Assembly (NCBI GenBank): GCA_963774265.1
Contig: CAVZDU010000002.1
Coordinates: 320,001 to 384,000 of the forward strand
Direction: 5' to 3'
DNA: 64,000 nucleotides
DNA from: an uncultured Chloroflexia bacterium
GTDB lineage: Bacteria > Chloroflexota > Anaerolineae > CG2-30-64-16
Position numbers and translations under genes: made by a program. Below, piece by piece: positions 45,125 through 64,000 of this stretch. How positions within the stretch are numbered: position 1 is the first letter of the stretch; each line of letters opens with the position of its first letter. The notes under the pieces are model-generated. The model was not told the DNA's origin and did no database searches. It was given only the letters and a program-made list of their open reading frames with translations.

Positions 45125-46669
45125 ATGAAGGATAAACTCGCAGAACTCCGAGCGATGCGCGCCAAGGCGAAGCTGGGCGGAGGTCAGAGCCGCATCGACG
45201 ACCAGCATTCCCGCGGCAAGCTCACTGGACGCGAACGCATTGATGCGCTGGTGGACTCCGGCACGTTCCAGGAACTGGGCCGGCTGGCCACCCACAACTT
45301 CAGCGATTTCGGCATGGCTGAGAAGCGCTATCCCGGCGACGGCGTTGTCACAGGGTTTGCAAAAATCGACGGCCGGCGCGTCGCCCTCTACGCCCAGGAC
45401 TTCACTGTCCTCGGCGGATCGTTCTCTGAAGTCCAGTCCCAGAAGGTCTGCAAGATCATGGAGCTGGCCATGGAGAGCGGCATCCCCGTCGTGGCGCTGC
45501 TCGACTCGGGCGGCGCGCGCATCCAGGAGGGTGTCCGCAGCCTGGCGGCGTACGGTGAGCTGTTCGTGCGCAACGTTATGGCCTCCGGCGTTGTGCCCCA
45601 GATTTCCGTCCAGATGGGACCTTGCGCGGGCGGCGCGGTTTACTCCCCCGCGCTGACAGACTTCGTGGTGATGGTCCGCAAGACCAGCTATATGTTTATC
45701 ACCGGGCCTGACGTGATCAAAGCCGTTACGGGCGAGCATGTCGACTTCGACACCCTGGGCGGCGCGGTGGCGCATAACGTCCAATCGGGCGTCGCTCATT
45801 TTGCGGCTGACGATGAGGCGGCGGCGTTTCGTCTTATCAAGGAGATCCTCTCCTATCTGCCCCAAAATAACAGCGAGGACCCGCCCCGCGTTCAGCCATA
45901 CGACGACCCGGGCCGCCGCGACGACATGCTCGACCACCTCATACCCGAGGACTCCAGCCAGCCATACGACATGCGACAGGTCATTGCCAGCGTCTTCGAC
46001 CGGGGCAGCTTTCTCGAAGTGCACGCACATTACGCGAAGAACGCGCTGATCGGCCTGGCCCGGCTCGATGGCTTCCCGGTCGGCGTGGTGGCCAACCAGC
46101 CCATGACCCTGGCCGGCGTTCTCGACATTGATTCCTCCGACAAGATCGCACGCTGGGTGCGCTTCTGCGACGCGTTCAACCTGCCGGTCATCACCTTCGT
46201 CGATACACCGGGATATATGCCGGGCGTTGCCCAGGAGCATGCCGGAATCATTCGCCACGGCGCAAAGGTCATCTATGCCTACTGCGAGGCAACGGTGCCC
46301 AAAATCAGCGTTGTGATCCGCAAGGCGATGGGTGGCGCGTACATTGCCATGAGCAGCAAGCAGATGCGCACCGATCTGGCCTACGCATGGCCCACCGCCG
46401 AGATCGCAGTCATGGGTCCGGAGGGCGCGATCAACATCCTCTACCGCGATGAGCTCAAGCGGGCCGAGAATCCCAATGAGCTTCGAAAGAAGCTGCTGCA
46501 GGATTACGTGGACCGCTTCCACAACCCCTACGCAGCCGCAGATATGGGCCAGATCGACGAGGTGATCGAGCCGAGCTACACCCGCCTGCGCCTCGTCAAC
46601 GCGCTCGAGATCCTGCGCTCCAAGGTGGCCAGCAATCCGCCGAAGAAGCACGGCTTGATGCCGGTGTGA
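45125..46669 (+). CDS. mmdA: Acyl-CoA carboxyltransferase subunit (methylmalonyl-CoA decarboxylase alpha / PccB-like)
   Basis: 'GKLTGRERI', 'DSGGARIQEG', 'GPCAGGAVYSPALTD', 'VDTPGY', 'KKHG'; followed by OadG, biotin carrier and OadB genes. Confidence 0.9.
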   Translation: MKDKLAELRAMRAKAKLGGGQSRIDDQHSRGKLTGRERIDALVDSGTFQELGRLATHNFSDFGMAEKRYPGDGVVTGFAKIDGRRVALYAQDFTVLGGSFSEVQSQKVCKIMELAMESGIPVVALLDSGGARIQEGVRSLAAYGELFVRNVMASGVVPQISVQMGPCAGGAVYSPALTDFVVMVRKTSYMFITGPDVIKAVTGEHVDFDTLGGAVAHNVQSGVAHFAADDEAAAFRLIKEILSYLPQNNSEDPPRVQPYDDPGRRDDMLDHLIPEDSSQPYDMRQVIASVFDRGSFLEVHAHYAKNALIGLARLDGFPVGVVANQPMTLAGVLDIDSSDKIARWVRFCDAFNLPVITFVDTPGYMPGVAQEHAGIIRHGAKVIYAYCEATVPKISVVIRKAMGGAYIAMSSKQMRTDLAYAWPTAEIAVMGPEGAINILYRDELKRAENPNELRKKLLQDYVDRFHNPYAAADMGQIDEVIEPSYTRLRLVNALEILRSKVASNPPKKHGLMPV

Positions 46670-46685
46670 GCATAGAGGTAGTCGC

Positions 46686-47111
46686 GTGAACCCAACCGTC
46701 GGAGAACTCCTTCAATCGGGGCTGACCATCACCGTTCTGGGAATGGGGCTGGTGTTTGCCGCCCTGGTGCTCCTGTGGGGCTTGCTTCGCCTCCTTTCAA
46801 CCGTTTTCCAGGACAAGGTGGAACCGCCGCCACAGATCAGCACAGCCCTCGATGAAGCCGAGGCGGCCGAGGTGCGGGCCGCGCTGGAAGCCGCTGCAGC
46901 CTTGACCGAGGAACGCGGCCAGGTCGCGGCGCTGGTGGCAGGGGCGTTGCTGGCGAACGCGCTGCCTTTACTCTTCGAGGCGCCCACCGGCCCCGCTTTC
47001 GAGCACGGCCGCACTGCGCCCTCCTGGGTGACAGGTAACCGGGCGCGGGCGCTGAGTTCATGGCAGCCTCCGCGCACACCCGAACCGAATCCACACCAGG
47101 GCACGGAATGA
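46686..47111 (+). CDS. OadG/MmdD family decarboxylase membrane anchor subunit
   Basis: 'GL.ITVLGMGLVF..L..L' TM; C-terminal 'SW..GNR..ALS'. Confidence 0.8.
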   Translation: MNPTVGELLQSGLTITVLGMGLVFAALVLLWGLLRLLSTVFQDKVEPPPQISTALDEAEAAEVRAALEAAAALTEERGQVAALVAGALLANALPLLFEAPTGPAFEHGRTAPSWVTGNRARALSSWQPPRTPEPNPHQGTE

Positions 47112-47139
47112 TGCCGTTAATACGAGAAAGGGAAGTCCT

Positions 47140-47599
47140 GTGCCAACCTTCGATGTGATGATCCAGGGCAAGAAATACCATGTCGAGATCCCTGACCCCG
47201 GCGCCACCCCGCTGCAGGTCATTGTCGACGGGGAGCCGTTCGATGTGGAGGTGTCGGGCACCGAGTCCACAGTCCACGCCGACCCTCCGCGCGGCGGCGC
47301 CCCGGCCCGCGCCCGAGCCCCCCAAGCTGCCACCCCTGCCGAACGTGAAGGTCGCCCGGCCTGCGGCGCCCAGCGGCCCAAGCGGCGGACACGACATCCT
47401 CTCGCCGATGCCGGGCACGATTCTGTCTATAGAGGTTAAGGTCGGTGAAGCGGTCGAGTCCGGCCAGGTCGTCGCCGTGCTCGAAGCGATGAAGATGAAA
47501 AACCCGATCCGCGCCAACTTCGACGGGACCGTGAGTGAGATCGCGGCGACCCCTGGCCAGGCCGTGGCCTACGGTGACGTGTTGGTCCGACTGGCCTGA
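47140..47599 (+). CDS. mmdC: Biotin carboxyl carrier subunit, apparent frameshift near 47280
   Basis: 'SPMPGTIL', biotinylation motif 'EAMKM'; N-terminal 'KKYHVEI' in the upstream frame. Confidence 0.88.
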
Positions 47600-47610
47600 A
47601 GGGGGCAGCC

Positions 47611-48776
47611 ATGAGCATCGGTTGGGACACTCTGCTGTCCATTTTCGCCGGGTTGGGAGAGCTGACCTGGGCCAACGTGCTGATGATCGCGGTCGGCGCG
47701 GTGCTCATCTACCTGGCCATCGCCAAAGAGTACGAGCCGGTCCTGCTGATCCCCATCGGCGTGGGCGCGATCCTGGCGAACATCCCAGGCGCAGGCATGG
47801 GACTCGACCTGCGGGCCATCATGGCCGGCGAACCCCAGGAAGGCAGCGTCTTCTACGCGCTGTACAAAGCAGGCATCGAGACCGAGCTCTTCCCGTTGAT
47901 CCTCTTCATCGGGATCGGCGCCATGACCGACTTCGGACCGCTGCTGTCGAACCCGCGGATGGTGCTGGTCGGCGCAGCGGGCCAGTTCGGCATCTTCGCC
48001 GTCCTGCTGCTCGCGCTGGCGACCGGCCGTTTCTCCCTGCCCGAGGCCGCGTCGATCGGCATCATCGGCGCCATCGACGGCCCGACCAGCATTTTCGTCG
48101 CATCCAAGCTGGCGCCGCACTTGCTGGCGCCCATCGCCGTCTCTGCGTATACCTACATGAGCCTGGTGCCGATCATTCAGCCGCCCATCATGCGCCTGCT
48201 CACGACGAAGGCCGAGCGCCGGATCCGCATGCCGTATATCGAGCGCCCGGTCAGCAAGCGCGCTCGCATCATCTTCCCCCTGGTGGTCACCCTTCTGACC
48301 GGCTTCCTGGCGCCCCAGGCCAGCCCCCTCATCGGCACGCTGATGTTCGGGAACCTGATGCGCGAGTCGGGCGTGGTGGACCGTCTGGTCAAGACCGCCG
48401 GCAACGAGCTAGCGAATATCGCCACCATCTTCCTGGGCATCACGATCGGTGCGACCATGGTCGGCGACGTCGTTCGCCAACGTTCAGACGCTCATCATCC
48501 TGGTCCTGGGCATCCTGGCCTTTGCGCTGGACACCGCAGCCGGCGTGCTGTTCGGCAAGCTGCTCAACGTGCTCACGCGCGGCAAATTCAACCCGCTTGA
48601 TCGGCGCGGCGGGCATCAGTGCATTCCCGATGGCTGCGCGGGTCGTCAATCGCGTGGGTCTCGAGGAAGATTATGACAACTTCCTGCTGATGCACGCGAT
48701 GGGCGCAAACACTGCCGGTCAGGTGGCTTCGGTCCTGGCCGGCGGCATTGTGCTGGCAATCATGACAGGAATCTAG
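47611..48776 (+). CDS. mmdB: Na+-translocating decarboxylase beta subunit, apparent frameshifts near 48470 and 48600
   Basis: '[10 protein letters not shown]', '[13 protein letters not shown]', '[11 protein letters not shown]', 'AYTYMSLVP', '[10 protein letters not shown]', '[10 protein letters not shown]'. Confidence 0.92.
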
Positions 48777-48778
48777 CT

Positions 48779-50359
48779 ATGCCAATTCTGACTCGCATCA
48801 AGCCTTCAGAGTATCACGACTCGATCACCCTCATGCAGGCAGCGGCCGCGCTCCTGGACATGCCTGGGATTACGGATGCGGCCGTGATCATGGGCACCCC
48901 CGCGAACCACGAGATCGTCTCGGGCGCGGGATTGCTGACGCCGGAGGCCGCGGCGACGCGGCCGGACGATCTGGTCATCATCGTCAAAGCTGCCGATGAT
49001 GCGGCCGGCCAGGCCGCGCTGGCGAAAGCTGAGGAAATCCTGTCGCGGCGGGCCGAACGCACGGAGGCGAATTCAGCGCGCCCCAAGTCGCTGGCATCAG
49101 CCATCGCGGCCGATCCCCGGGCGAACCTGGCGGTGATCTCGGTCGCAGGCCGCTATGCCGCACAAGAAGCGCGCACCGCGCTCGAAGCCGGGTTGCACGT
49201 GCTCCTCTTCTCGGACAACGTGCCCCTGGAAGACGAGATCAGCCTCAAGGAGCTGGCAGCAAGCAAGGGCTTGCTGTGCATGGGGCCGGACGCCGGCACC
49301 GCGATCATCAACGGCGTCGCGCTGGGGTTTGCGAACGCAGTCCCGCGCGGCAGCATCGGGTTGGTCAGCGCAGCGGGCACCGGGCTGCAGGGGGTGACCT
49401 CCGGAATTGCACGCCGCGGCGTGCGCGGCGCCGCGAGCGGCGCGGGCGTGTCGCAGGCCATCGGCACGGGCGGCCGCGACCTGAGCGAGGCGGTCGGCGG
49501 CAAGATGATGCTCCAGGGGCTGAAGATGCTCCAGGAGGACCCCGAGACAGAGGTGATTGTCCTCATCTCGAAGCCGCCTGCCCCGGCGGTTGCCCAGAAG
49601 GTGCTCGGCGCGATCACCAAGGCCAAGCCCACAGTCGTGTGTTTCCTCGGCGCAGACCTAGGCGCGATCGAGAAGGCCGGCGCACTCCCAGCGACGACAC
49701 TGACGCAGGCGGCTGTGATCGCGGCCAGCCTGACCACCGGCGGCAACTACTGTGAAGCGTTGATGGGTTTGGAAGACTTCAGTCAGGATCTGATCCCCCT
49801 GGCTGAAGGCGAGCGCAGGAAGCTCGCTCCAGGCCAAACTGCGCTGCGCGGCCTCTTCGTCGGCGGCACTTTCTGCTACGAGGCCCAGCTCCTGCTCAAG
49901 AACCTGCCCGAGCCGGTGCACAGCAACGCGCCGCTGATCGAGGCGAACAAGCTGGGGGCTGAGACATACAAGCACACGATCATCGACCTCGGTGAGGACG
50001 AATTCACTCAGGGACGCCCGCATCCGATGATCGACCCGACGCTGCGAAACCGGCGCATCACCCAGGAGGCAGGGGATCCCTCTGTCGGGGTGATCCTGCT
50101 CGACTTCGTGCTCGGCTATGGCAGCCACATCGACCCTGCTGGCGCAGCGCTGGAGGCAATTCGCCAGGCGCAGCGAACTGCGCGGGAGGCCGGCCATAAC
50201 CTGGTCTTCGTCGCTTCAGTCTGCGGCACGGAGGCCGATCCCCAGCGCCTGAGCGACCAGGAGGCGAAGCTGCGCGGGGCTGGCGTGATCGTCCTGCCCG
50301 ACAATGCGTCGGCTGCGAGACTGGCGGGCTTGATCAGCCAGGGATTGGACGAAGCCTGA
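48779..50359 (+). CDS. fdrA: FdrA/YahF-like (succinyl-CoA synthetase-related; oxamate carbamoyltransferase AllF family) protein
   Basis: 'Y.DS..LM', 'MGTPAN', 'FSDNV', 'MGPDAGTAII', 'IGTGGRDL', 'DLGEDEFTQGRPHPMIDP', 'D.VLGYGSH.DP'. Confidence 0.88.
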   Translation: MPILTRIKPSEYHDSITLMQAAAALLDMPGITDAAVIMGTPANHEIVSGAGLLTPEAAATRPDDLVIIVKAADDAAGQAALAKAEEILSRRAERTEANSARPKSLASAIAADPRANLAVISVAGRYAAQEARTALEAGLHVLLFSDNVPLEDEISLKELAASKGLLCMGPDAGTAIINGVALGFANAVPRGSIGLVSAAGTGLQGVTSGIARRGVRGAASGAGVSQAIGTGGRDLSEAVGGKMMLQGLKMLQEDPETEVIVLISKPPAPAVAQKVLGAITKAKPTVVCFLGADLGAIEKAGALPATTLTQAAVIAASLTTGGNYCEALMGLEDFSQDLIPLAEGERRKLAPGQTALRGLFVGGTFCYEAQLLLKNLPEPVHSNAPLIEANKLGAETYKHTIIDLGEDEFTQGRPHPMIDPTLRNRRITQEAGDPSVGVILLDFVLGYGSHIDPAGAALEAIRQAQRTAREAGHNLVFVASVCGTEADPQRLSDQEAKLRGAGVIVLPDNASAARLAGLISQGLDEA

Positions 50360-50363
50360 AAGG

Positions 50364-51773
50364 ATGACCGACATGGACCTGTTCCGCCAACCCTTGAAGC
50401 CGATCAACGTCGGCCTGGAATCGTTCTACGAAAGCATGGTCAGCCAGGGGCGCCGGCCGTCGCTGTGGACTGGCGGCCGCCGCTCGAGGGCTACGTCGAG
50501 ATGCTGCGCACACGCGACGGGGTCGACATCGAGGCGGCCAACGCCGAGGCCTTCGCGCGCATCACCGCGGGCCGCCCGATGCTCGTCGGCATGGGCATGG
50601 CACAGCGACGTGATCCCCGGCTTCGCGCCGGCGCACGGCGCGGATGCTGATCACGCACAGCGGGCCGCCGATCGCGTGGGAGCGCATGTGCGGCCCGACG
50701 CGCGGCGCAGTCATGGGCGCGCTGATCTACGAAGGGCTGGCCGAGACGCCCGAAGACGGCCGCGGCCCTGGCCGCGTCCGGCGAGATCGAGTTCGCACCC
50801 TGCCATCACTACGGCGCGGTCGGGCCGATGGCGGGCATCATCAGCCCATCGATGCCGGTGTTCATCGTCAAGAACGAGGCATTCGGCAACGTCGCCTACG
50901 CCACGCAGAACGAGGGGCTGGGCAAGGTGCTGCGCTACGGCGCGTACGGGCCCGGAGGTGATCCGCCGGCTCAAGTGGATGGAGACGGTGCTCTACCCAG
51001 CGCTCAAGGCGGCGCTGGAGGTCAGCGGCCCGATCGATCTGCGCAGCATGACCGCACAGGCGCTGCACATGGGCGACGAGTGCCACAACCGCAACAAGGC
51101 CGGCACTTCGCTCTTCATCCGGCTGATCGCGCCGGCGCTGGTGGAGGCGGTGAAGGATCGCGGCAGTCGTTGCCGAGGTGCTGCGCTTCATCGACGGCAA
51201 CGACCACTTCTTTCTGAATCTCTCGATGCCGGCGATGAAGGCAATGCTGGCTGCCCGCCGAAAACATCCCCGGCTGCACGGTCGTGACCATGATGGCGCG
51301 CAACGGGACGGATTGGGGCATCCGCGTCAGCGGCACGGGCGACCGCTGGTTCACCGCGCCCGCGCCGTTGGTCGCAGGGCTCTGGCTGCCCGGCTTCACC
51401 GCGGCCGACGCCAACCCGGACATCGGCGACAGCGCGATCACCGAGACGGGCGGGATCGGCGGGTTTGCGCTGGCCGGCGCGCCGGCCATCGTCAAGTTCG
51501 TCGGCGGCACGCCGGCCGACGCGCTGAACGCGACGCTGGAGATGTACGAGATCACGCAGGGCGAACACACCGCGTTCACGATCCCCGGCGCTCAATTTCC
51601 GCGGCACGCCCGTCGGCATCGACGTGCGCAAGGTGATGCGCACCGGGATCACGCCGCGGCTGAACACCGGCATCGCACACCGGGAGCCGGGCGTGGGCAT
51701 GGTGGGCGCCGGGCTGGTGTAGGCGCCGAAGGGGTGTTTTGTGGCCGCGTTTGAGGCGCTAAAAGCGATCTGA
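50364..51773 (+). CDS. DUF1116 (YahG/YlbE/AllG family) protein, several apparent frameshifts and an in-frame TAG at 51720
   Basis: 'INVGLESF...DWRPP', 'HSGPPI.WE.MCGP..GA', 'NEGLGKVLRYG', 'LHMGDECHNRN', 'ARNGTD', 'ANPDIGDSAITET', 'NTGIAHREPG.GMVGAG'. Confidence 0.85.
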
Positions 51774-51844
51774 CCGCCCATCTTGTGATACATTTCTCGC
51801 ATTGAGTGCTTGCACAATCCGGCAAAGCTGTGTATAGTGTCACC

Positions 51845-52858
51845 ATGCACATGAAAAACAACCGGTTCTCCTGGCTGTTCCTCGTGCTGGTTACCATCAT
51901 CATGCTTAGCCTGGCCCCAGCCGCACAAGCGGCAGGTCGTGGCGCGCCGCTTCCGCCCTCCGGCGGAAAATACACCGTGCGCGTCAACGACACCCTATGG
52001 GACATCGCCGCCAGGTACGGCATGACCGTAGCACAGTTAACAGCCGCGAACCCAGGCGTCAACCCGGCGGCCCTCCGCCCCGGCCAGATCCTGACAATCT
52101 CCTCTGCAAGATCGCAAGTTTCCGATACCGTTCCCGAAGCTCCCTGCGCCGTCTATGCCGTAATGCCCAATGACACCTTGTGGGACATTGCCGCCAATTA
52201 CGGCCTGACGCTCGACGATCTGCTCGCCGCAAATCCCGGGGTCGATCCCAAGCGCCTCATGGTGGGGCAGGAACTGACGATTCCAGGCATCAGTCAAGAC
52301 ATGCTCTCGGCCCAGACGACCGCGGCGCCAGCACCCGGAGGGGAGGTAGCCCCTGCAGCCGAAGCCGCACCTGCTGCCGAGGCAGCGCTTCCGGTCGCGG
52401 CAGCACCTGCAGCCGAGGCGGCAGCGGCGCCCGGCGTGGGGGCTGCTCCTGCGGCCGCGCCGGAAGTCAGCCCAATGGCCCAGGAGATGCTGAACCGCAT
52501 CAACGAGAAACGCAGCGCGGGTGGACTTGCCGCGCTGACATGGAATGGCCAATTGGCCGCCGCGGCGCAAGCACACGCAGAGGATTGCGCCACAAGAAAC
52601 CGCGGCAGCCACGTAGGTTCGGACGACGCGCGGCTTGCCGCACGGCTCCAGCGCGCGGGCTATGCCCCGAGCTGGTCCGGCGAGAACTGGGCCAATGCCC
52701 GCAGCGTCGAGCGAGCCATGCAGATGTGGTGGAACGAGCCACGCGGCGCAGATCCGCACGTGCAGAACATCATGGCCCGCCGCGCAACGGAAATCGGCAT
52801 CGGAGTCGCCCGGGGCGCCTGGGGCATTTACTTCATCGCCGATTTTGGGAGCCAATGA
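51845..52858 (+). CDS. Secreted LysM(x2)-CAP domain protein
   Basis: Signal peptide; two 'Y.V..NDTLWDIAA.YG' LysM domains; Ala/Pro linker; CAP 'IN.KR...L.WN..L..AAQ.HA.D...GEN...PH..NI'. Promoter TTGCAC-17-TATAGT ends 6 bp before the ATG. Confidence 0.9.
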   Translation: MHMKNNRFSWLFLVLVTIIMLSLAPAAQAAGRGAPLPPSGGKYTVRVNDTLWDIAARYGMTVAQLTAANPGVNPAALRPGQILTISSARSQVSDTVPEAPCAVYAVMPNDTLWDIAANYGLTLDDLLAANPGVDPKRLMVGQELTIPGISQDMLSAQTTAAPAPGGEVAPAAEAAPAAEAALPVAAAPAAEAAAAPGVGAAPAAAPEVSPMAQEMLNRINEKRSAGGLAALTWNGQLAAAAQAHAEDCATRNRGSHVGSDDARLAARLQRAGYAPSWSGENWANARSVERAMQMWWNEPRGADPHVQNIMARRATEIGIGVARGAWGIYFIADFGSQ

Positions 52859-52875: not shown

Positions 52876-53749
52876 ATGAAGCTCATCGATCTCACCATCC
52901 CTCTGGGCATCGGCACGCCGGCCTGGCCCACCTATGAGCCGCTGCAGGTCAAGTACTTCAAGCGGCTGGCGCCCAACGGCGCGAACGGCCAGCTGCTCAC
53001 CCACTCGAACCACCTCGGCACCCACCTGGACGGCGAAATCCACTTCTACACGCCCGGCAAGGACATTGCCAGCCTGGATATGGACTTCCTGGTCGGCCCG
53101 ACGGCCATCGTGGATCTCTCGGACGTCTGCGGCAACTACGATATCTACACGTCGCAGATGATCGAGGAGCGGGTCGAGGTGCGCGAGGGCGACATCCTGA
53201 TCATCCACACCGGCTACCATCACTTCGGCTGGGACATGCCCACGGCCGACGAAATCCGCTACATGGTGCAGCATCCGGGCCCGGACCGGGAGTTCTCGGT
53301 CTGGGCGAAGCAGAAGGGCATCAAGTGGATCGGCGTGGACTGCGGCAGCGCGGATCATCCGATGAACACGATCATCCGCCAGTGGATGCCGCGCCAGGCC
53401 AAGGAGGCCGACGCTCACTTCCAGAAGAAATACGGCGTCGAGCCTGGCCGAACGCTTCGACGATTCCAAGTACCAGCTCATGCACATCGAGATGTTCCCC
53501 GATCACATCATCCACGCGGAGTGCATCGGCGGCGAGATCGACCTGCTGCTGAACCGCCGGGTGACCGTCGGCTTCTTCCCCTGGCGCTTCGTGGACGGCG
53601 AGAGCAGCATCGGACGCTGCGTGGCCTTCGTCGAGGATGACGAGTACGAAGAGCTGATGGCGAAGAAGGCGGCGCTCAAGACCACGAAGTTCGGCGACGC
53701 ATTCAATCCGGCGCACGTGGAGCGGATCAATGCGTTGACGCGGACGTAG
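52876..53749 (+). CDS. Cyclase family (kynurenine formamidase-like) metal-dependent amidohydrolase, apparent frameshift near 53440
   Basis: 'IDLT.P', 'HLGTHLDGE.H', 'GDILIIHTG', 'HPGP', 'GVDCGSADHP', 'HAEC'; RBS AAGGAGG. Confidence 0.88.
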
Positions 53750-54705: not shown

Positions 54706-55896
54706 ATGCAGCCACTGGATGGTATCCGCGTCATTGACCTGACCGAGGCTTTGGCCGGGCCGATCTGCACGATGATGCTCGGTGACCTGGGTGCGGACGT
54801 GGTCAAGATCGAACGGCCCGGCACGGGCGACATGTCGCGCGGCTGGGCGCCACCCTTCGTCGGCCCGGAGAGCGCCTACTTTCTCAGCGTCAACCGCAAC
54901 AAACGTAGCTTGACCCTCAATCTGCGCGAGCCAGAGGCGCGCACCGTCCTCCAGAGGCTGGTCGGTCAGGCGGACGTGTTCGTCGTCAACCAGCCGCGAC
55001 TCGACTCGCTGCAGCGGCTGGGCGCGGACCCGGACACGCTGTGCACGATCAACCCGCGGCTGGTGTATTGCGCGGTCAGCGGCTACGGAATGACCGGCCC
55101 TTACGCCGGGCAGGCCGGCTACGACATCCTGGCCCAGGCCGCCTCAGGTCTGATGGCGCTCACCGGCGAGCCGGGTCAGGGGCCCATCCGTTACCCTGTC
55201 CCGCTGAGCGACGCGTCCGCGGGACTGAACAGCGTCATCGGGATCCTGTCAGCGTTGCTCGCCCGCACGGTTTCGGGCCGGGGCCAGTTCGTGGATGTTG
55301 CGCTGCTCGACAGCCAGGTCGCCTGGCTCACCAATATCGCTGGCGCTTTCTTTGCCACCGGGGTCCGGCCTCCCAAGCTGGGCAACGCGCATCCCAATAT
55401 CGTGCCCTACCAGCCGTTCCAGGCGCGGGACAAGCACTTTATCGTCGCGGTGGGCAGCGAGCGGCTTTGGGAGCGCTTCTGTCAGGTCCTGGGCATCACC
55501 GAAACCATCGGCCGTGACCCGCGCTTCGCGACCAACGCCGACCGGTTGCGCCATCGCGACGAGTTGGTATCCGAGCTGGCGCGCATCTTTGAAACGCAGG
55601 ATGCTGAGCATTGGCTCGTACGGCTCAAGGCAGCTGATATTCCGGCCGGGCCCATCAATGAAGTGGACGAGGCGCTCACCGATCCGCACGTGCTGGCGCG
55701 CGGGATGGTCGTCGAGATGGAGCATCCGGCGGCTGGACCAGTGCGTTCGCTCGGCACTCCGGCCCATCTCCGAGATACGCCGGCTACCTATCGACTGCCC
55801 CCGCCCACGCTGGGGCAGCATACGATCGAGATTCTGGCACACCTGGGGTACTCGCAGGCGCAGATCGAGCAGCTTGAGAAGCAAGGGGTGGTCTGA
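54706..55896 (+). CDS. Class III (CaiB/BaiF) CoA-transferase
   Basis: 'PLDGIRVIDL...AGP...LGDLGADVVKIE', 'NRNKRS', 'GYDILAQA', 'PPTLGQHT'. Confidence 0.93.
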   Translation: MQPLDGIRVIDLTEALAGPICTMMLGDLGADVVKIERPGTGDMSRGWAPPFVGPESAYFLSVNRNKRSLTLNLREPEARTVLQRLVGQADVFVVNQPRLDSLQRLGADPDTLCTINPRLVYCAVSGYGMTGPYAGQAGYDILAQAASGLMALTGEPGQGPIRYPVPLSDASAGLNSVIGILSALLARTVSGRGQFVDVALLDSQVAWLTNIAGAFFATGVRPPKLGNAHPNIVPYQPFQARDKHFIVAVGSERLWERFCQVLGITETIGRDPRFATNADRLRHRDELVSELARIFETQDAEHWLVRLKAADIPAGPINEVDEALTDPHVLARGMVVEMEHPAAGPVRSLGTPAHLRDTPATYRLPPPTLGQHTIEILAHLGYSQAQIEQLEKQGVV

Positions 55897-55916: not shown

Positions 55917-55945
55917 TTGACACTGCCCCGCGGCGATGCTATACT
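55917..55945 (+). promoter_or_regulatory. Strong sigma70 promoter of the fdrA-DUF1116-cyclase-Mo hydroxylase operon
   Basis: TTGACA-17 bp-TATACT with extended -10 TGC. Confidence 0.8.
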
Positions 55946-56043: not shown

Positions 56044-57789
56044 ATGACGGTCGTCCAAGCTGAGGTACGGCGCAGTGCCTATTACGACTCCATTGTCCTC
56101 ATGCAGTTGCGTGCCGCGCTTTCCGAGCTGCCCGGCGTCATCGACGCCGGCGTGGTAATGGGCACGCCAGCCAACCTCGAATTACTGACTCAAAGCAATC
56201 TCCTCCCTCCGGAGGCGCAGGGCGCCAGACCCGACGATCTGATCATCACCATCGAAGCGCACGATGAGGCCGCGGCCCGCGCGGCATTGGCGCAAGTCGA
56301 CGCGCTGCTCACCCGGCGGAGATCAACCTTGCAGCAAGAGCACCGTCCGCAGAGCCTGGAAACGGCCGCGGACCTGGCGCCAGAGGCCGCCTGGGTGCTG
56401 ATTTCCGTGGCCGGCCGGTACGCAGCCGGGATCGCGCGCGCCGCGCTCAACCTTGGCAAGCACGTTTTCCTGTTCAGTGACAACGTCCCGGTCGAGGACG
56501 AGATCGCACTCAAAGCGAGAGCGGCGGCTCGGGGCCTACTGGTGATGGGGCCTGACTGCGGCACCGCAATCATCAACGGGATCGGACTGGGTTTCGCCAA
56601 TAAGGTGCGTCGAGGCTCAATCGGCGTTGTGGCCGCGGCGGGCACGGGTCTGCAACAGGTCACGGCGCGCATCCATCAGTTGGGCGGCGGCGTCACCCAC
56701 GGCATCGGCACGGGGGGCCGTGACCTGACAGAAAAAGTCGGAGCGGTCACGTTCCGTCAGGCGCTCGACGTGCTCGCCCGCGACTCCGAAACGCGCGTCA
56801 TTACCCTGGTGTCCAAGCCGCCTGCGCCAAAGGTTGCGGAAGAGATGCTGTCGCTGGCCCGACTGGCGCCGAAACCAGTCGTGGTGAACTTCATCGGGCG
56901 TGCCGCGTCGACTTGGCAGATAGACAATCTTCACTTCGCAACAGGGCTCGACGATGCAGCGCGGTTGGCGGTGGAGTTGACGACCAGGGACTGGCCGGCA
57001 GCCCTTCCGGGAGACAAAGCCGGGAGATCAGGTTCGGGACAGGGGGGAGATTTCGCACCTGGCCAGCGCTACCTGCGCGGGCTTTACTCCGGAGGCACCC
57101 TGGCCTACGAGGCGCAATATCTCCTCCAGGACTACCTGCCGCAGGTCTGGGCCAACGCACCGCTCGACAAAGCCAACCGGATACCCAACTCCCTGGTGAG
57201 CCAGCAACACACGATCATTGACCTGGGCGAGGACGAATTCACCGTGGGCCGGCTGCACCCCATGATGGATAACGAGCTGCGTATCCTCCGGCTGAGCCAG
57301 GAGGCCGCCGATCCGGAGACAGCCGTGATCTTGCTGGATGTGGTGCTCGGCTATGGCTCGCACCCCGACCCCGCAGGCGAGCTGGCCCCCGTGATCGCCG
57401 GCGCGAAGGCAGCAGCCCAGGCTGCTGGCCGTCACCTCGAGATCGCCGCGGTCGTCACCGGCACGGACGAAGACCCGCAGAACTTCAGCAGTCAGATCGA
57501 GCAGTTGCGCGCCGCCGGCGCCTGGGTAGATGCCAGCAACGAGGCGGTCGTGCGCTATGCAGGCCGGATCTTGCGGACACTAAATCCCCAGTCCCGCGTA
57601 CCGGATCGCCAACAACCCGTAGACCTGGCCACCCTGCAAAGAAACCTCTCCGCCATCAACGTCGGCCTGGAGTCTTTCGCCGAGAATCTGATCGCCCAGG
57701 GCGCGCAGGCCATCCAGGTGGACTGGAGGCCGCCCGCCGGGGGGAACCAGAAGCTGATGGGGATTCTGGAGCGAATGAAGAGGAGCTAG
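56044..57789 (+). CDS. fdrA: FdrA (AllF-type, with C-terminal 'INVGLESF..DWRPPAGG' segment)
   Basis: 'YYDSIVLM', 'MGPDCGTAII', 'GGTLAYEA', 'FTVGRLHPMMD'; ATG at 56044 after GGAG. Confidence 0.9.
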   Translation: MTVVQAEVRRSAYYDSIVLMQLRAALSELPGVIDAGVVMGTPANLELLTQSNLLPPEAQGARPDDLIITIEAHDEAAARAALAQVDALLTRRRSTLQQEHRPQSLETAADLAPEAAWVLISVAGRYAAGIARAALNLGKHVFLFSDNVPVEDEIALKARAAARGLLVMGPDCGTAIINGIGLGFANKVRRGSIGVVAAAGTGLQQVTARIHQLGGGVTHGIGTGGRDLTEKVGAVTFRQALDVLARDSETRVITLVSKPPAPKVAEEMLSLARLAPKPVVVNFIGRAASTWQIDNLHFATGLDDAARLAVELTTRDWPAALPGDKAGRSGSGQGGDFAPGQRYLRGLYSGGTLAYEAQYLLQDYLPQVWANAPLDKANRIPNSLVSQQHTIIDLGEDEFTVGRLHPMMDNELRILRLSQEAADPETAVILLDVVLGYGSHPDPAGELAPVIAGAKAAAQAAGRHLEIAAVVTGTDEDPQNFSSQIEQLRAAGAWVDASNEAVVRYAGRILRTLNPQSRVPDRQQPVDLATLQRNLSAINVGLESFAENLIAQGAQAIQVDWRPPAGGNQKLMGILERMKRS

Positions 57790-57798: not shown

Positions 57799-59067
57799 AT
57801 GATAGACATCGAGCTGGCCAATCGCACAACCGTCGAACGCATGATGGAGGCCCGGCCGGTACTGATCGGAGTGGGCCTTGCGCGGGACGTGATCCCCGGG
57901 ATGCGGGACAACCTGCTGCTGCACGCGGGACCGCCGGTCACCTGGCAGCGCATGGCCGGCCCGATGAAGGGCGCGGCCGTGGGCGCACTGATCCTCGAGG
58001 GCAAGGCAAACGGTTGGGACGACGCGGAGGCGCTGATCGCATCAGGCGCGATCGAGTTCGAGCCGTGCCACCATCACTCAGCCGTGGGCCCAATGGCGGG
58101 CCTCATCTCGCCTTCGATGATGGTCTATATCGTGGAGGATCAAGCCTCGGGTCCGGGCGGCGCACGCGCCTTCTCAGGCATCAACGAAGGCCGCGGGAAG
58201 GTGCTGCGCATGGGCGCGTACAGCGAGGACGTGCTGGCCCGTCTGCGCTGGCTAAACGAGGTGATGGCGCCCGTGTTGGATGCAGCAATCCGGCGATCTG
58301 GCGATCGCGGGAGCGGGGGCATCGATATGCGCGCCCTGCTGGCGCAATCGCTCCACATGGGGGATGACGGCCACAACCGGATGCAGGCCGGCTCGCTGCT
58401 CTTTCTCAAAAGCCTGGACCCCTTCATAACCAGGGTCGCGCCCTCCCCAGAGATCGCCTCCGACATCCTGCGGGAAATCGGCGACAACCCTTTGGCGGTT
58501 CTGAACGCGGGCATGGCGGCGTGCAAGCTCATGACCCTGGCCGGGCATGGGATTGCCGGCAGCACCATCGTCACCACGATGAGCCGCAACGGCACCGACT
58601 TTGGCATCCGTGTCAGCGGTCTGGGTGACCGCTGGTTCACTGCCCCGGCCGGCAAGGTGAAGGCGCTATATTTCTCCGAGTTCACCGAGGCCGACGCCAA
58701 CCCTGACATCGGCGACAGCACCATCACCGAGACGTCCGGCATCGGCGGGTTCGCCATGGCCTCGGCGCCGGCTATCGTCCAGTTCATCGGCGGCTCGGCC
58801 CACGACGCGGTGAACACCACACTCGAAATGTACGAGATCACCTACGCCGAGCACAAATACTTCACGATGCCGCCCCTGGATTTTCGCGGCACCCCGACCG
58901 GCATCGATATCCGCAAGGTGGTGGAAAAAGGGATTCTGCCCCGCGTCAACACCGGCGTCGCGCATCGGGAGCCGGGCATCGGCCAGGTGGGCGCGGGCAT
59001 CGTAACCGCGCCGATGAGTGTATTCGAGGATGCGTTGGTGGCGTACGCGGAGGAGTACGGGTATTAG
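57799..59067 (+). CDS. DUF1116 (YlbE/AllG family) protein
   Basis: 'LHAGPP', 'PCHHHSAVGPMAG', 'HMGDDGHNR', 'DANPDIGDS', 'NTGVAHREPGIGQVGAG'. Confidence 0.9.
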   Translation: MIDIELANRTTVERMMEARPVLIGVGLARDVIPGMRDNLLLHAGPPVTWQRMAGPMKGAAVGALILEGKANGWDDAEALIASGAIEFEPCHHHSAVGPMAGLISPSMMVYIVEDQASGPGGARAFSGINEGRGKVLRMGAYSEDVLARLRWLNEVMAPVLDAAIRRSGDRGSGGIDMRALLAQSLHMGDDGHNRMQAGSLLFLKSLDPFITRVAPSPEIASDILREIGDNPLAVLNAGMAACKLMTLAGHGIAGSTIVTTMSRNGTDFGIRVSGLGDRWFTAPAGKVKALYFSEFTEADANPDIGDSTITETSGIGGFAMASAPAIVQFIGGSAHDAVNTTLEMYEITYAEHKYFTMPPLDFRGTPTGIDIRKVVEKGILPRVNTGVAHREPGIGQVGAGIVTAPMSVFEDALVAYAEEYGY

Positions 59068-59148
59068 GAAGGAGCGCCCCGTGGGTTTCACCACCTTTCG
59101 TAGATCGACCGCAATCGGAAACCATCGACGCTGAAAGGATCGACGTAC

Positions 59149-60828: not shown

Positions 60829-61720
60829 ATGAAACCAGCTCCCTTTGCGTATTACGCCCCCAGAAGCCTTGACGAGACCCTGGTTCATCTGGCTGAGTTG
60901 GGGTACTCCGGCAAAGTCCTCGCCGGTGGCCAAAGCCTGATCCCGGCCATGAACTTCCGCCTCGCACAACCGGGTGCTCTGGTCAATCTGAACACGGTCC
61001 CCGAGCTATCGTATATTCAGGTTGCGGCCGGCGGCGGAGTGCTGATCGGCGCGATGACGCGTACCAGCACCGTCGAGCACGACCCCTTGATCGCGCAGCG
61101 CGCCCCCTGCTGACTGAATCGATACCTCACATTGCCTGGGCACAGATCCGCAACCGGGGTACGTTTGGCGGGAATGTTGCGCATGCGGACCCTGCCGGCC
61201 ATCTGCCCGCCATCACTGTCACCCTGAACGCCCGCCATCATGTGCAGAGCCGACGCGGCGACCGCTGGCTCTCATCAGATGACTTCTTCACCGGCGCGTT
61301 CATGACGGCGCTGGAGCCAGACGAACTGCTGGTCGAAGTGGCCGTGCCGCCCATGCCGCCGCGCAGCGGGTGGAGCTACAAACAGGCCGCACGACAGGCC
61401 GGCGCCGAAGCGATGGTCGGCGCGGCTGCCCTGGTCAGCCTGGATGAACATGGCCGCTGCTCGCAGGCGCGCCTCTCGTACATCAGTGTAGGCGAAGTGC
61501 CCCCTCTCGCCCGCAACGCGGCCAAAGTGCTGGTTGGCGAGGCGCCCACACTTGAGGCCATCCGGGCGGCTGCCGAGGCCGCGATCTCAGACGTCGATCC
61601 GGGCGAGGACATCCACGCGACGGCTGATTACCGCCGCTTCCTCGTGCGAACGCTGACCCGACAAGTGCTCACCCAGGCATTTGAACGTGCGAGCACGGGG
61701 TATTCGATTTTGGGTTCTGA
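60829..61720 (+). CDS. Mo hydroxylase FAD subunit (CoxM-like), 1-bp deletion in a C-run near 61107; may be fused to the following 2Fe-2S domain
   Basis: 'MKPAPF.Y', 'LAGGQSLIP.MNFRLA', then shifted 'AQIRNRGTFGG..AHADP', 'DIHATADYRR'. Confidence 0.85.
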
Positions 61721-61799
61721 AGTCTCTCATAGTCGCCCAGACCGCGCCGCCACCCACCACCCCATACCCGATATCCAGGCCCTGAAGACCGAACCTGCC

Positions 61800-62273
61800 T
61801 GCCCGACTCTCCCCATCATCGTCACCGTCAACGACGTCCGTTACGAACGCACAGTCGAACCCCGCCTGCTCCTGAGTGATTTCATCCGCCATGAGCTTGG
61901 GCTCACCGGCACCCATGTCGGCTGCGAGCACGGAGTCTGTGGCACCTGCACCGTCTTGCTGGACGGACAGCCGATCCGCTCCTGCCTGACCTTCGCGGTT
62001 CAGGCCCACGGCCATAACGTCCGCACGGTGGAGGGCTTGGGGACGATCGACAACTTACACCCGCTGCAGGAAGCGTTCCGCGACGCGCACGGCCTCCAAT
62101 GTGGCTTCTGCACGCCGGGCTTCTTGATGACCCTGCTGCCGTTCCTGGATGAAAACCCGAACCCATCAGAGCAGGAGATCCGTGAGGCGATCTCGGGCAA
62201 CCTGTGCCGGTGCACCGGGTATCAGCACATCGTCGAGGCGGTGAGGCTGGCCGCGGAAAGGATGCCGAGATGA
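61800..62273 (+). CDS. (2Fe-2S) subunit (CoxS-like), in frame with the FAD subunit C-terminus
   Basis: 'GTHVGCEHGVCGTCT', 'LQCGFCTPG', 'GNLCRCTGY'. Confidence 0.88.
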   Translation, partial: CPTLPIIVTVNDVRYERTVEPRLLLSDFIRHELGLTGTHVGCEHGVCGTCTVLLDGQPIRSCLTFAVQAHGHNVRTVEGLGTIDNLHPLQEAFRDAHGLQCGFCTPGFLMTLLPFLDENPNPSEQEIREAISGNLCRCTGYQHIVEAVRLAAERMPR

Positions 62274-64000
62274 AGTACGTGGGTCAACGCATCAAGCGCA
62301 ATGAGGATCCTCGCCTGCTGACCGGGCAGGCGCTCTTCGTGGACGATGTGCAAATCCCAGGCATGCTGCATGCCGGATTCCTGCGCAGCGACTATGCCCA
62401 TGCACGCATCCGCAGCATCGACGTATCGAAGGCGCGGATGCGACCTGGCGTGGTGGCTGTCTACACCGCGGAAGACATGGGCGACTTCTGGAAACCCGGC
62501 CCCCTGCTGGTGCCCGCGCCCCACTCGATTCCCGGCCTGATCTTCAACAAACGCACGCAACTCCCCATGGCCCGCGCCGGGGATAAGGTCCGCCACGCCG
62601 GAGAGGCGCTTGCCTGTGTCATCGCCGAGAGCCGCTACATCGCCGAGGACGCGTTCCAGGACATCGAGGTTGACGTGGAACCGCTCGGGGTCGTCGCTGA
62701 CCTGGAAGGCGCCCTGGAACCGGGTGCACCTCTGGTCCACGATGAGTTAGGTACGAACCTCGCCTCTTATGTCAAGCAAGAAAAGGGCGACTACGCTACT
62801 GCCCGCGCCCAGGCCGACACGGTAATCAGCCGCCGGATAGTGATCGATCGTGGGGCCGCGGCTGCGCTGGAGAACCGCGGTTACGTCTCCTGGTGGGATC
62901 CAAAAACCCAGGAGTTGACCGTTTGGGCGACCACCCAGGCGCCCATCGCCTACCGCAACGTCATCGCCGGCTTGTTGGGGCTGTCCGAGAGCCAGGTGCG
63001 GGTGATCGCGCCCTTTGTCGGCGGCGGTTTCGGCCCCAAGATTATGCTCGGCCAACCCGAGGAGCAGTTGCTTGCCTGGAGCACCCTTCGCCTGGGCCGG
63101 CCGATCAAATGGATCGAGGACCGCCAGGAGAACTTCTTGACTACCACTCAAGAGCGCATGCAAGTCCACGACGTGGAGATAGCATTGACGCGAGATGGCA
63201 AGATCCTCGGGCTGAAGGATGTCTTCATCCACGACACGGGCGCATACAACCCCTACGCCTTGACGGTCCCGCTGAACACGCAGACCCACACCATGGGGCC
63301 GTACGAGATCCCGAACTTTCACACCGAATACAGGGTGGTCTTCACCAACCGCATCATCGTCACCCCGGTGCGCGGCGCGGGCCGGCCCCAGGGCGTCTTT
63401 GTGATGGAGCGCATGCTCGATCTGGCGGCCAAAGAGCTGGGCCTGGACGTTACCGAGATCCGGGCGATGAACATGATCCGGCCCGATGAGTTCCCCCACC
63501 CACAGGGGATCATCGGCCAGGACTTCACCGAGCTCATCTACGATAGCGGCAACTTCCCTGCGACGCTGGAAAAGGCGAAGGCCCTGATCGGTTACGACCA
63601 GTTCGTACACGAGGAGCAGCCCAGGCTGCGCGCCGAGGGCAAACTCATCGGCATCGGCGTGGCCTGCTTCACTGAGGGTAGTGCCGTGGGGCCGTATGAA
63701 GGCGCCCGGGTAACTGTGGAATCGAGCGGCAAGGTGAATGTAGCGACAGGCGTCGGCACGCAGGGCCAGGGGCACTTCACGTCATTCGCCCAGATCGTGG
63801 CTGACCAGGTGGGGGTGCCGCCTTCCGACGTGCACATCACCACCGGCGACACGCAGAAGTTCCACTGGGGCACCGGCACCTTCGCCAGCCGCGGTGCGAC
63901 GATTGCGGGCAACGCCATCAACGCTGCAAGTGCGAGCGTGCGCGCCAAGATCCTCAAGCTGGCCAGCAAGGTGCTCGAAACGCCGGAGCAGGAGCTGGAG
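62270..64000 (+). CDS. Xanthine dehydrogenase/CoxL-family molybdopterin large subunit, truncated by right edge
   Basis: ATG overlaps upstream TGA; 'VGQRIKRNEDPRLLTG', 'VGGGFGPK', active-site loop 'TPVRGAGRPQ', 'QGQGH.T', 'GTFASR'; open to the window end. Confidence 0.92.
   Translation, partial: MKYVGQRIKRNEDPRLLTGQALFVDDVQIPGMLHAGFLRSDYAHARIRSIDVSKARMRPGVVAVYTAEDMGDFWKPGPLLVPAPHSIPGLIFNKRTQLPMARAGDKVRHAGEALACVIAESRYIAEDAFQDIEVDVEPLGVVADLEGALEPGAPLVHDELGTNLASYVKQEKGDYATARAQADTVISRRIVIDRGAAAALENRGYVSWWDPKTQELTVWATTQAPIAYRNVIAGLLGLSESQVRVIAPFVGGGFGPKIMLGQPEEQLLAWSTLRLGRPIKWIEDRQENFLTTTQERMQVHDVEIALTRDGKILGLKDVFIHDTGAYNPYALTVPLNTQTHTMGPYEIPNFHTEYRVVFTNRIIVTPVRGAGRPQGVFVMERMLDLAAKELGLDVTEIRAMNMIRPDEFPHPQGIIGQDFTELIYDSGNFPATLEKAKALIGYDQFVHEEQPRLRAEGKLIGIGVACFTEGSAVGPYEGARVTVESSGKVNVATGVGTQGQGHFTSFAQIVADQVGVPPSDVHITTGDTQKFHWGTGTFASRGATIAGNAINAASASVRAKILKLASKVLETPEQELE

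Follow-up and report, generated by a model that had tools for sequence, protein, structure and literature searches.

The stretch analysed here, referred to as the window, comprises 64,000 nucleotides (nt) of contig CAVZDU010000002.1 in assembly GCA_963774265.1, an uncultured Chloroflexia bacterium of the class Anaerolineae whose genome is represented by 5.5 Mb in 10 contigs, with ~63% G+C and an estimated completeness of 84%. The first 31 kb hold housekeeping genes unrelated to the subject of this work, a catabolic supercluster of ~36 kb that runs from ~35.7 kb in the window to ~11 kb past its end and that may degrade pyrimidines. From 45.1 to 64 kb, genes lying on the + strand encode a Na+-pumping acyl-coenzyme A (CoA) decarboxylase, two pairs of FdrA and DUF1116 proteins (AllF-like and AllG-like, respectively), two cyclase-family hydrolases (PF04199), a nitrilase-superfamily C-N hydrolase, a family III CoA-transferase and a molybdenum (Mo) hydroxylase. 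The same co-oriented set was named in a preliminary description of this DNA, and Pfam and NCBIfam profiles recovered all of its families. Four details are amended: the Mo hydroxylase, described as three-component, consists of two open reading frames (ORFs), its flavin adenine dinucleotide (FAD) and 2Fe-2S parts being fused and its large subunit ending ~620 nt past the window; cyclase-2 carries two cyclase domains in tandem; frameshifts break the genes for the biotin carrier, OadB, AllG-1, cyclase-1 and the FAD part; and a gene for a secreted LysM-CAP protein, absent from that description, lies between those for AllG-1 and cyclase-1. Genes of the main cluster overlap or are separated by 0-80 nt, and the layout is therefore operon-like. 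We also scanned the following 20 kb of the same contig (locus L001), which carries, in order, genes for a CoxG/SRPBCC protein bearing a membrane helix at its C-terminus, an NCS2 permease, a small protein, a second Mo hydroxylase complete with FAD, FeS and XdhA/4-hydroxybenzoyl-CoA-reductase-like large subunits, two lipoproteins and a phosphofructokinase.

Of the 241 stretches confirmed in a search with AllG-2, the 80 best loci were retained and underlie all counts out of 80; proteins encoded in the window served as tblastn queries for their annotation, and many of the loci are cut by contig ends. Nearly all come from Anaerolineae, the class to which these relatives assign the organism, or from other Chloroflexota; Bellilinea caldifistulae and Anaerolinea thermophila are among them. 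FdrA was found in 68/80 loci, a cyclase in 66/80 (tandem type in 62, single type in 13), a Mo large subunit in 57/80 (type 1 in 47, type 2 in 14), CoxG in 44/80, the NCS2 permease in 37/80, the C-N hydrolase in 24/80, the CoA-transferase (CaiB) in 15/80 and the decarboxylase (MmdA/OadB) in 6/80, while AllH, the third E. coli partner of AllF and AllG, appeared in 5/80 at >35% coverage and in 12/80 at any coverage. When only loci with at least 8 kb of sequence downstream of AllG were considered, 55/59 carried a Mo enzyme. The core of FdrA, DUF1116, cyclase, Mo hydroxylase and permease is thus strongly conserved in Anaerolineae, and the recurrence of these neighbours across 80 related loci shows that the arrangement is not a product of chance. 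The co-localisation across genomes on which the preliminary description had made its pathway depend is therefore observed, and it extends to the decarboxylase, which recurs beside FdrA/AllG.

The commonest order among these loci is FdrA2-AllG2-cyclase2-FAD-FeS-Mo1-CoxG-permease. A second type, represented by L010, reads LysM-CAP, cyclase-1, C-N hydrolase, (major facilitator superfamily transporter), CaiB, FdrA2, AllG2, permease, Mo hydroxylase 2, two lipoproteins and phosphofructokinase, which corresponds to the window minus the segment from cyclase-2 to the permease. At least three modules, found apart from one another in relatives, are fused in the window, namely 1) decarboxylase (Mmd)-FdrA1-AllG1, 2) cyclase1-C-N hydrolase-CaiB-FdrA2-AllG2, together with a permease and Mo hydroxylase 2, and 3) cyclase2-Mo hydroxylase 1-CoxG-permease. 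The duplicates probably act on related substrates, e.g., uracil and thymine. Among the loci examined, this one is the most complete single-locus version, combining on one strand the pump, both FdrA/AllG clades, both cyclase types, the amidase candidate, the CoA-transferase, a permease and Mo enzymes.

Table 1. Genes of the catabolic supercluster within the window, with the profile matches and frame defects of each (positions in nt of the window; scores in bits).
Feature	Position	Strand	Evidence and remarks
VWA protein, CoxE-like	35704-36954	-	VWA_CoxE 213 bits (Pfam); maturation factor of upstream Mo hydroxylase
AAA ATPase, CoxD-like	36967-37887	-	Pfam AAA_5; maturation factor of upstream Mo hydroxylase
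Upstream (third) Mo hydroxylase	39216-42909	-	Pfam FAD_binding_5, Ald_Xan_dh_C, MoCoBD_1, MoCoBD_2; frames by tblastn
Subunits of upstream Mo hydroxylase	FAD 42055-42909; 2Fe-2S ~41632-42050 (frameshifted); large 39216-41767 (three ORFs)	-	
GntR/FCD regulator	43640-44209	-	Pfam GntR, FCD; C-terminus out of frame; divergent from main cluster
CoxG/SRPBCC protein, upstream	44206-44703	-	Pfam COXG; divergent from main cluster
Carboxyltransferase alpha, MmdA-like	45071-46669	+	Carboxyl_trans 626.7 bits, full length
Small membrane anchor, OAD_gamma family	46686-47111	+	PF04277 40.4 bits (cut-off 27)
Biotin carrier	47140-47599	+	Biotin_lipoyl 70.7 bits on C-terminal frame; EAMKM biotinylation motif; frameshift in Ala/Pro-rich linker
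OadB-type Na+-pumping carboxybiotin decarboxylase beta	47611-48776	+	TIGR01109 346.5 bits (cut-off 190.6); three frames
FdrA-1 (AllF-like)	48779-50359	+	NF004760 475.1 bits (cut-off 433)
DUF1116/AllG-1, AllG1-type clade	50364-51764	+	PF06545 in four pieces; six single-base insertions, net in frame
Secreted LysM-LysM-CAP protein	51806-52858	+	Pfam LysM, CAP; between AllG-1 and cyclase-1
Cyclase-1, single-domain PF04199, ~290 aa	52876-53746 (start approximate)	+	PF04199 102 bits; HLGTHLD metal motif; frameshift ~53430-53439
Nitrilase-superfamily C-N hydrolase	53797-54702	+	CN_hydrolase 170.9 bits, full length
Family III (CaiB/Frc-type) CoA-transferase	54706-55896	+	CoA_transf_3 429 bits
FdrA-2 (AllF-like)	56044-57789	+	NF004760 554.2 bits (cut-off 433)
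DUF1116/AllG-2, intact, AllG2-type clade	57799-59067	+	PF06545 291 bits, full length
Cyclase-2, tandem double PF04199	59149-60828	+	PF04199 189 bits, two stretches
Mo hydroxylase 1, fused FAD (CoxM-like) and 2Fe-2S (CoxS-like)	60829-62273	+	FAD_binding_5, CO_deh_flav_C, Fer2, Fer2_2; frameshift ~61105
Mo hydroxylase 1 large subunit, form-II CoxL type	62270-64000, ending at window-equivalent 64621	+	805-aa ORF L001:204-2621

The best curated model for the large subunit of Mo hydroxylase 1 is NF040766 (aerobic CO dehydrogenase large subunit, group 5), at 862 bits and below the cut-off of 950; TIGR02416 scores 535 bits against a cut-off of 991. Its active-site loop reads PVRGAGR and lacks the Cu-binding cysteine of form I CO dehydrogenases, in which the loop is AYRCSFR. 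Nearest among solved structures (Protein Data Bank, PDB) are CoxL (8uem), quinoline 2-oxidoreductase (1t3q) and 6-hydroxypseudooxynicotine dehydrogenase, at 520-427 bits, and xanthine dehydrogenases are far away at ~147 bits or less. Mo hydroxylase 1 therefore groups with form-II CoxL/quinoline-oxidoreductase-type hydroxylases of N-heterocycles and not with xanthine dehydrogenases or aldehyde oxidoreductases. For the large subunit of Mo hydroxylase 2, XdhA and 4-hydroxybenzoyl-CoA reductase are the best models. The upstream Mo hydroxylase, encoded with its accessory genes in a divergent operon (35704-44703), may at most be a putative member of the pathway. Three Mo hydroxylases and two cyclases in one region suggest that more than one substrate is probably handled. 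As for the permease, uracil permease PRK10720 is the best model (201.8 bits, cut-off 477), ahead of RutG (134.3) and xanthine permease pbuX (113.5), all below cut-off. The protein has a PESTAH motif and a nucleobase-ascorbate transporter (NAT) motif, ENNSLMVITR, that opens with Glu, presumably the mark of uracil carriers, where xanthine and urate carriers would have Gln; on model scores and motif it is predicted to be uracil-type.

FdrA has CoA-binding and CoA-ligase domains; an alignment with 13 orthologues put the start of FdrA-2 at residue 37 of an ORF beginning at 55936. To place the AllG proteins, a maximum-likelihood tree was built from 25 proteins, with rows hand-picked from the loci and the window's broken AllG-1 left out. 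It contains an AllG1-type clade (6 rows, support 98/96), whose genes have AllH and/or Mmd as neighbours, and an AllG2-type clade (17 rows, support 100/100, stem 0.53), whose neighbours are cyclase, Mo enzyme and permease; AllH also occurs in some AllG2-type loci (L023, L072 and L099). The outgroups, from Peptoclostridium and an E. coli ColV plasmid, fall nearer the AllG1 type, but on long branches. At the ColV plasmid locus, the order is DUF1116-carbamate kinase-cytosine permease, and in Peptoclostridium acidaminophilum (L090, NZ_CP007453.1 732857-742525), an amino-acid fermenter available in culture, PucR, NCS2, cysteine hydrolase, NCS2, DUF2877, FdrA, DUF1116 and carbamate kinase genes lie together with no Mo hydroxylase. 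A structure prediction of FdrA-2 (residues 37-612) with AllG-2 scored 0.41 against 0.01 for the best control, with at least 82% of contacts agreeing between runs and a pLDDT (predicted local distance difference test) of at least 89 in the partners. The pass mark used was reached by 58/80 solved complexes and 2/110 mismatched pairs, and the prediction supports a complex only weakly, passes at scores of 0.60 or below having come from only 7/80 solved complexes and from both passing mismatches.

In E. coli, AllF, AllG and AllH are all required for oxamate carbamoyltransferase activity, and AllFGH phosphorolyses the N-acyl-urea oxalurate, its only proven substrate (PMC11326118). A metagenomic study places allFGHK beside biuret/triuret genes in nitrifiers (PMC12625717). 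The window resembles the E. coli AllF-AllG-AllH and AllK system in the adjacency and shared direction of FdrA and DUF1116 and in the proposed type of reaction, i.e., phosphorolysis of an N-acyl-urea to carbamoyl phosphate and an amide, with ATP formed by carbamate kinase. It differs in having two pairs of different clades, no detected AllH and an unlinked carbamate kinase, and in that the pairs are embedded among genes for Mo hydroxylase, cyclases, permease, amidase, CoA-transferase and Na+ pump rather than allantoin genes; the proposed substrate, ureidomalonate, would be one carbon longer than oxalurate. The preliminary description had placed carbamate kinase and DUF2877 (AllH, PF11392) outside the window, as is the case: the only full-length carbamate kinase lies on another contig (C1:425167-426099), in a YgeW/YgfK-type cluster, and DUF2877 was not found in the assembly. 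Within a sample of 201 Anaerolineae genomes, 71 AllG-positive and 130 AllG-negative, AllH was present in 63, including 57/71 of the AllG-positive ones, frequently at a distance of 2-10 kb from AllG or else on a different contig. Considering this frequency, AllH may lie in the unassembled part of the present genome. A search for a hidden copy beside the homologue of the gene that adjoins AllH in genome G084 found nothing. Carbamate kinase was linked in 0/80 related loci. As a marker of co-occurrence it was rejected, as 171/201 class genomes carry it with or without AllG; being nearly universal in the class, it gives no support either way.

Na+-translocating methylmalonyl- and malonyl-CoA decarboxylases are known from Mmd of Veillonella and Propionigenium and from malonate fermentation in Malonomonas and Sporomusa. 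The window's complex has the same four parts (carboxyltransferase alpha, anchor, biotin carrier and OadB-type pump) and would have the same role, building a sodium gradient from a low-energy decarboxylation. It differs in being joined to FdrA/DUF1116 genes and, as proposed here, in being fed by nucleobases, and its MmdA-like alpha subunit scores 763.3 bits on TIGR01117 (mmdA), below the 998.8 cut-off. The link with FdrA is not confined to this organism. Specifically, MmdA-biotin carrier-OadB-[AllH]-FdrA1-AllG1 forms one co-directional unit in G124, G076 and G182, genomes of three families, with G124 in the family of the window. In G076 (L107:7228-12603), an Amidohydro_3 (YahJ-like) gene lies between AllH and FdrA1, in place of a cyclase, and in G182 (L106:9156-14083) the unit includes a gene for a GNAT-Dabb fusion. 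In three further configurations, decarboxylase genes also stand beside modules of the AllG2 type (L020, L026, L035, L037, L055 and L077). By coordinates, OadB lies within ~5 kb of AllG or AllH in 7/71 AllG-positive genomes. Overall, OadB was detected in 50/71 AllG-positive and 35/130 AllG-negative genomes, which amounts to a tendency because the genomes are related and the counts are not independent.

Cyclase-2 has lost the HxGTHxD metal motif in its N-terminal half and retains HLATHMD in its C-terminal half, and it resembles a dimer fused into one chain in which one site is dead. Its structural model is of moderate quality only (pLDDT 68; predicted template modelling score, pTM, 0.74; active-site loops below 50), and its best PDB folds, 3krv, 8hmo, 4co9 and 4m8d, are cyclase-family hydrolases, kynurenine formamidase and isatin hydrolase. 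By these fold matches, the PF04199 family includes a ring-opening enzyme, isatin hydrolase. The barbiturase family (PF09663, AtzD/TrzD) was matched in 0/201 Anaerolineae genomes, including that of the window, with the control genomes also giving no match and hence no positive control. This result leaves the cyclases as the candidates for ring opening. No gene of the amidase-signature (ureidomalonase) type was seen among the scanned ORFs of the cluster, the rest of the genome not having been searched. The C-N hydrolase lies between FdrA2 and AllG2 in many loci, and the best NCBIfam models for the CoA-transferase, all below cut-off, are all dicarboxylate users (succinate/glutarate, oxalate and mesaconate). 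The presence of CaiB and the C-N hydrolase inside AllG2-type modules points to a route from an amide to a CoA ester.

A further nucleobase cluster, one of reductive uric-acid type, lies at C1:414-434 kb (G000:C1:414001-434000, L103). It comprises genes for a GntR regulator, an XdhB-like FAD subunit, a PucD/XdhA-like (XdhD-like) Mo subunit, YgeY (445 bits, cut-off 321), two carbamoyltransferases of the ornithine-transcarbamylase (OTCase) fold, carbamate kinase, two pyridoxal-phosphate enzymes and YgfK (870 bits, cut-off 835). This set matches the reductive uric-acid pathway, listed in a preprint as XdhD, YgfK, SsnA, HyuA, YgeW, YqeA, YgeY and YgeX, with mention of a Chloroflexota variant (10.1101/2025.05.19.654654). 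Like that pathway, the cluster studied here would be an anaerobic nucleobase route with a Mo enzyme at its first step and an ATP yield from carbamoyl phosphate. However, the uric-acid pathway relies on other families (OTCase-fold carbamoyltransferase, flavin reductase and hydantoinase-type hydrolases) and occupies a separate locus here. Since purines have their own route in this genome, a pyrimidine is favoured as the substrate of the studied cluster.

Taken together, the gene content is best explained by anaerobic oxidative breakdown of uracil- or thymine-type pyrimidines that ends in Na+-coupled decarboxylation, a function to which we give an even chance and of which we infer every step. A UraA-type NCS2 permease would import uracil or thymine, and the form-II-CoxL-type Mo hydroxylase would hydroxylate C6 with water to give (5-methyl)barbiturate, its electrons leaving via FeS and FAD and the enzyme probably being docked to the membrane by membrane-anchored CoxG. 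A PF04199 cyclase, in place of barbiturase, would then open the ring and yield the N-acyl-urea ureido(methyl)malonate, which FdrA/AllG, probably with AllH, would phosphorolyse to carbamoyl phosphate and (methyl)malonamate, the unlinked carbamate kinase making ATP from the former. The C-N hydrolase, a candidate amidase, would strip the amide nitrogen to leave (methyl)malonate, the family III CoA-transferase would convert this to (methyl)malonyl-CoA, and MmdA, the biotin carrier and OadB would decarboxylate the ester while exporting Na+. The wider proposition, that Anaerolineae ferment pyrimidines by an undescribed route from uracil (or thymine) through barbiturate and ureidomalonate to carbamoyl phosphate plus malonamate and on through malonyl-CoA to acetyl-CoA, with ATP gained from carbamate kinase and a Na+ gradient from a malonyl-CoA decarboxylase whose genes share an operon with FdrA/DUF1116, is more tentative, and we place it somewhat short of even.

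In the aerobic oxidative pathway of actinomycetes, uracil/thymine dehydrogenase (EC 1.17.99.4), barbiturase (EC 3.5.2.1) and ureidomalonase (EC 3.5.1.95) act in turn. The proposed intermediates are the same, from uracil through barbiturate and ureidomalonate to malonate, and a water-dependent Mo hydroxylation would likewise come first. In contrast, a PF04199 cyclase would here replace barbiturase, ureidomalonate would be split by phosphate to carbamoyl phosphate rather than hydrolysed to urea, and malonate would go on to Na+-pumping decarboxylation. The pyrimidine pathway put forward in the preliminary description is partly supported and is the best-supported reading: it is strengthened by the co-localisation, the predicted uracil-type permease, the grouping of the Mo large subunit, the separate urate cluster and the recurrent union of the decarboxylase with FdrA/AllG operons, and left short by the missing AllH and by two AllG clades that a linear route does not explain.

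Several observations weigh against the pyrimidine route. The two FdrA/AllG pairs are distinct clades and not simple duplicates, whereas a single linear pathway needs only one. AllH gave no hidden Markov model (HMM) match in this 84%-complete assembly, and tblastn with the proteins of six relatives as queries returned nothing better than E 0.2. None of CaiB, the C-N hydrolase, MmdA and the permease reaches the curated cut-off of a named equivalog. In G182 and G076, the Mmd-AllH-FdrA1-AllG1 unit has no Mo enzyme, cyclase, CaiB or C-N hydrolase nearby, and OadB, being the sole copy in the assembly, may also serve general methylmalonyl-CoA metabolism. With six frameshifts in ~1 kb, AllG-1 may be decaying. 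Finally, no gene assigned to uracil dehydrogenase, and hence no sequence for comparison, was found in the searchable full-text literature, which does not cover subscription journals.

Four other readings were weighed. It is unlikely, although worth keeping in view, that the same logic serves another N-heterocycle or ureide, such as a purine-derived or hydantoin/parabanate-type compound giving oxalurate, a biuret-type acyl-urea or an environmental heterocycle. The region contains three different Mo hydroxylases and two cyclases, which suggests that several substrates are handled; XdhA and 4-hydroxybenzoyl-CoA reductase are the models that fit Mo hydroxylase 2 best, and the solved structures closest to Mo hydroxylase 1 belong to enzymes whose substrates are CO, quinoline and a nicotine metabolite. 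Furthermore, oxalurate is the only substrate proven for AllFGH (PMC11326118), and the nitrifier allFGHK genes keep company with biuret/triuret genes (PMC12625717). Against such a substrate stand the permease, predicted to be uracil-type by model score and motif, and the dedicated cluster that serves urate elsewhere, and no allantoin-pathway genes were seen among the scanned ORFs of the cluster. In addition, decarboxylases of the MmdA/OadB family act on malonyl-type CoA esters and not on oxalyl-CoA. A distinctly unlikely reading takes the modules as independent neighbours, with Mmd-FdrA1-AllG1 activating or otherwise processing a dicarboxylate (e.g., malonate) ahead of its Na+-coupled decarboxylation and FdrA2-AllG2-cyclase-Mo-permease scavenging nucleobase nitrogen without feeding carbon to the decarboxylase. 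It would account for the occurrence of Mmd-[AllH]-FdrA1-AllG1 alone in L106 and L107, for FdrA2-AllG2-cyclase2-Mo-CoxG-permease loci that are mostly without Mmd (present in 6/80), for the separate AllG1 and AllG2 clades and for the LysM-CAP gene that separates the units in the window, and the CoA-binding and CoA-ligase domains of FdrA (succinyl-CoA-synthetase-like) would suit it. Yet Mmd directly adjoins AllG2-type modules in L026, L035, L037, L055 and L077, CaiB and the C-N hydrolase within AllG2-type modules suggest an amide-to-CoA-ester route, and the sole tested member of the family is a carbamoyltransferase and not a CoA ligase (PMC11326118).

It is scarcely credible that the Mo enzymes are dehydrogenases of carbon monoxide or aldehydes, as automatic annotation would have it, with no relation to the FdrA genes. 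The best NCBIfam model of Mo hydroxylase 1 and the presence of CoxG, CoxD and CoxE homologues would lead to this annotation, but the score falls below the model cut-off (862 vs 950), the PVRGAGR loop has no Cu-binding cysteine of the kind found in AYRCSFR, and the synteny with FdrA, AllG, cyclase and permease is tight and conserved. We also deem it very improbable that the frameshifts are real and the pathway non-functional in this organism. The cluster holds about a dozen frameshifts in ~30 kb, six of them in AllG-1, and AllH was not found in the assembly. However, the essential rpoB is split too, a completeness of 84% is typical of indel-rich long-contig assemblies, the six shifts of AllG-1 are all +1 and restore the overall frame without in-frame stops within the pieces, and identity with intact orthologues at the protein level remains 55-90%.

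The frameshifts affect the biotin carrier, OadB (two, near 48460-48600), AllG-1, cyclase-1, both FAD subunits and the upstream Mo large subunit, each of which is read in more than one frame. Their density is ~6 per kb in AllG-1 against ~0.2 per kb nearby. The extra bases of AllG-1 lie at 50604, 50757, 50948-54, 51158, 51249/50 and 51583, and related metagenome contigs are one base shorter at each, as are the short metagenome contigs of relatives at the cyclase-1 site; these contigs are 88-99% alike and in frame at the shift sites, which is a comparison with relatives and no proof of an assembly error here. No public sequencing run contained more than 0.09 of the sampled words, and the contigs compared come from relatives and not from this organism. 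Intact counterparts include a cyclase-1 orthologue of 290 aa in L010 and a FAD/2Fe-2S orthologue that is a single ORF in L012. Because rpoB (C7:822-4053) and a gyrA paralogue are also split and completeness is only 84%, the frameshifts of the cluster are most likely assembly errors. A homopolymer cause was considered and set aside, as the indel sites lie in runs of only 2-4 bases with no clear signature. Single-base frameshifts are frequent throughout the genome (e.g., rpoB and C8:326949-329338), and overlapping ORF pairs downstream of the cluster, a split histidine kinase (L001:13099-14861) and a solute-binding protein that runs into an Ig-like/chagasin-domain ORF (L001:16071-18283), look like further artefacts of this kind. 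Protein-based annotation therefore under-calls genes in this assembly, and the completeness of 84% is probably an underestimate.

Pyrimidines are known to be broken down by the reductive, Rut, URC and aerobic oxidative routes. In the searchable full-text literature, from which subscription journals are missing, we found no description of an energy-yielding anaerobic oxidative pyrimidine route and no paper that joins FdrA/DUF1116 to pyrimidines or reports an anaerobic barbiturate route. If the pyrimidine reading is true, form-II CoxL Mo enzymes would be uracil/thymine dehydrogenases, PF04199 cyclases would be barbiturate ring-opening hydrolases, and AllFGH-type enzymes would be general acyl-urea phosphorylases, split into two specialised paralogous clades and with a second natural class of substrate. 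Functions would thereby be offered for large families that are mis-named or lack one (form-II CoxL, DUF1116/FdrA outside E. coli and PF04199 cyclases), and the route would explain how abundant fermentative Chloroflexota of sediments and digesters live on nucleic-acid debris. New here are 1) the most complete form of the cluster on a single strand, 2) the conserved Mmd-[AllH]-FdrA1-AllG1 operon, 3) the two-clade structure of AllG, and 4) the presence of AllH in most carrier genomes, together with the separate urate cluster.

A few further genes accompany the supercluster. The gene for the LysM-LysM-CAP protein keeps its position 5' of cyclase-1 in L010, L011 and L056; the protein is probably not a pathway enzyme, and its gene may lie at the border of an operon. 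A 164-aa cytoplasmic protein of no known family is encoded between the permease and Mo hydroxylase 2 (L001:4981-5475, window-equivalent 66981-67475) and is kept only in the closest loci, L012 and L017. The tandem paralogous lipoproteins, each of ~325 aa and internally duplicated (L001:9321-11298, window-equivalent 71321-73298), remain 3' of Mo hydroxylase 2 in L010, L011, L015 and L056. They were considered as a hidden AllH or pathway enzymes and rejected, as they match no Pfam or NCBIfam family and show weak ESM Atlas matches (0.80-0.84) to an unnamed Chloroflexota cluster. A search of a plasmid collection revealed distant DUF1116 genes (29% identity) on a Rhodococcus ruber plasmid, in an unrelated aromatic-dioxygenase context, and a Brevibacillus record that carries no annotation; neither clarified the gene context. 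Finally, 12 kb upstream of the cluster, the window encodes a 5'-nucleotidase with an N-terminal PKD domain (31390-33276, +), which is probably secreted and would fit a lifestyle of nucleic-acid scavenging.

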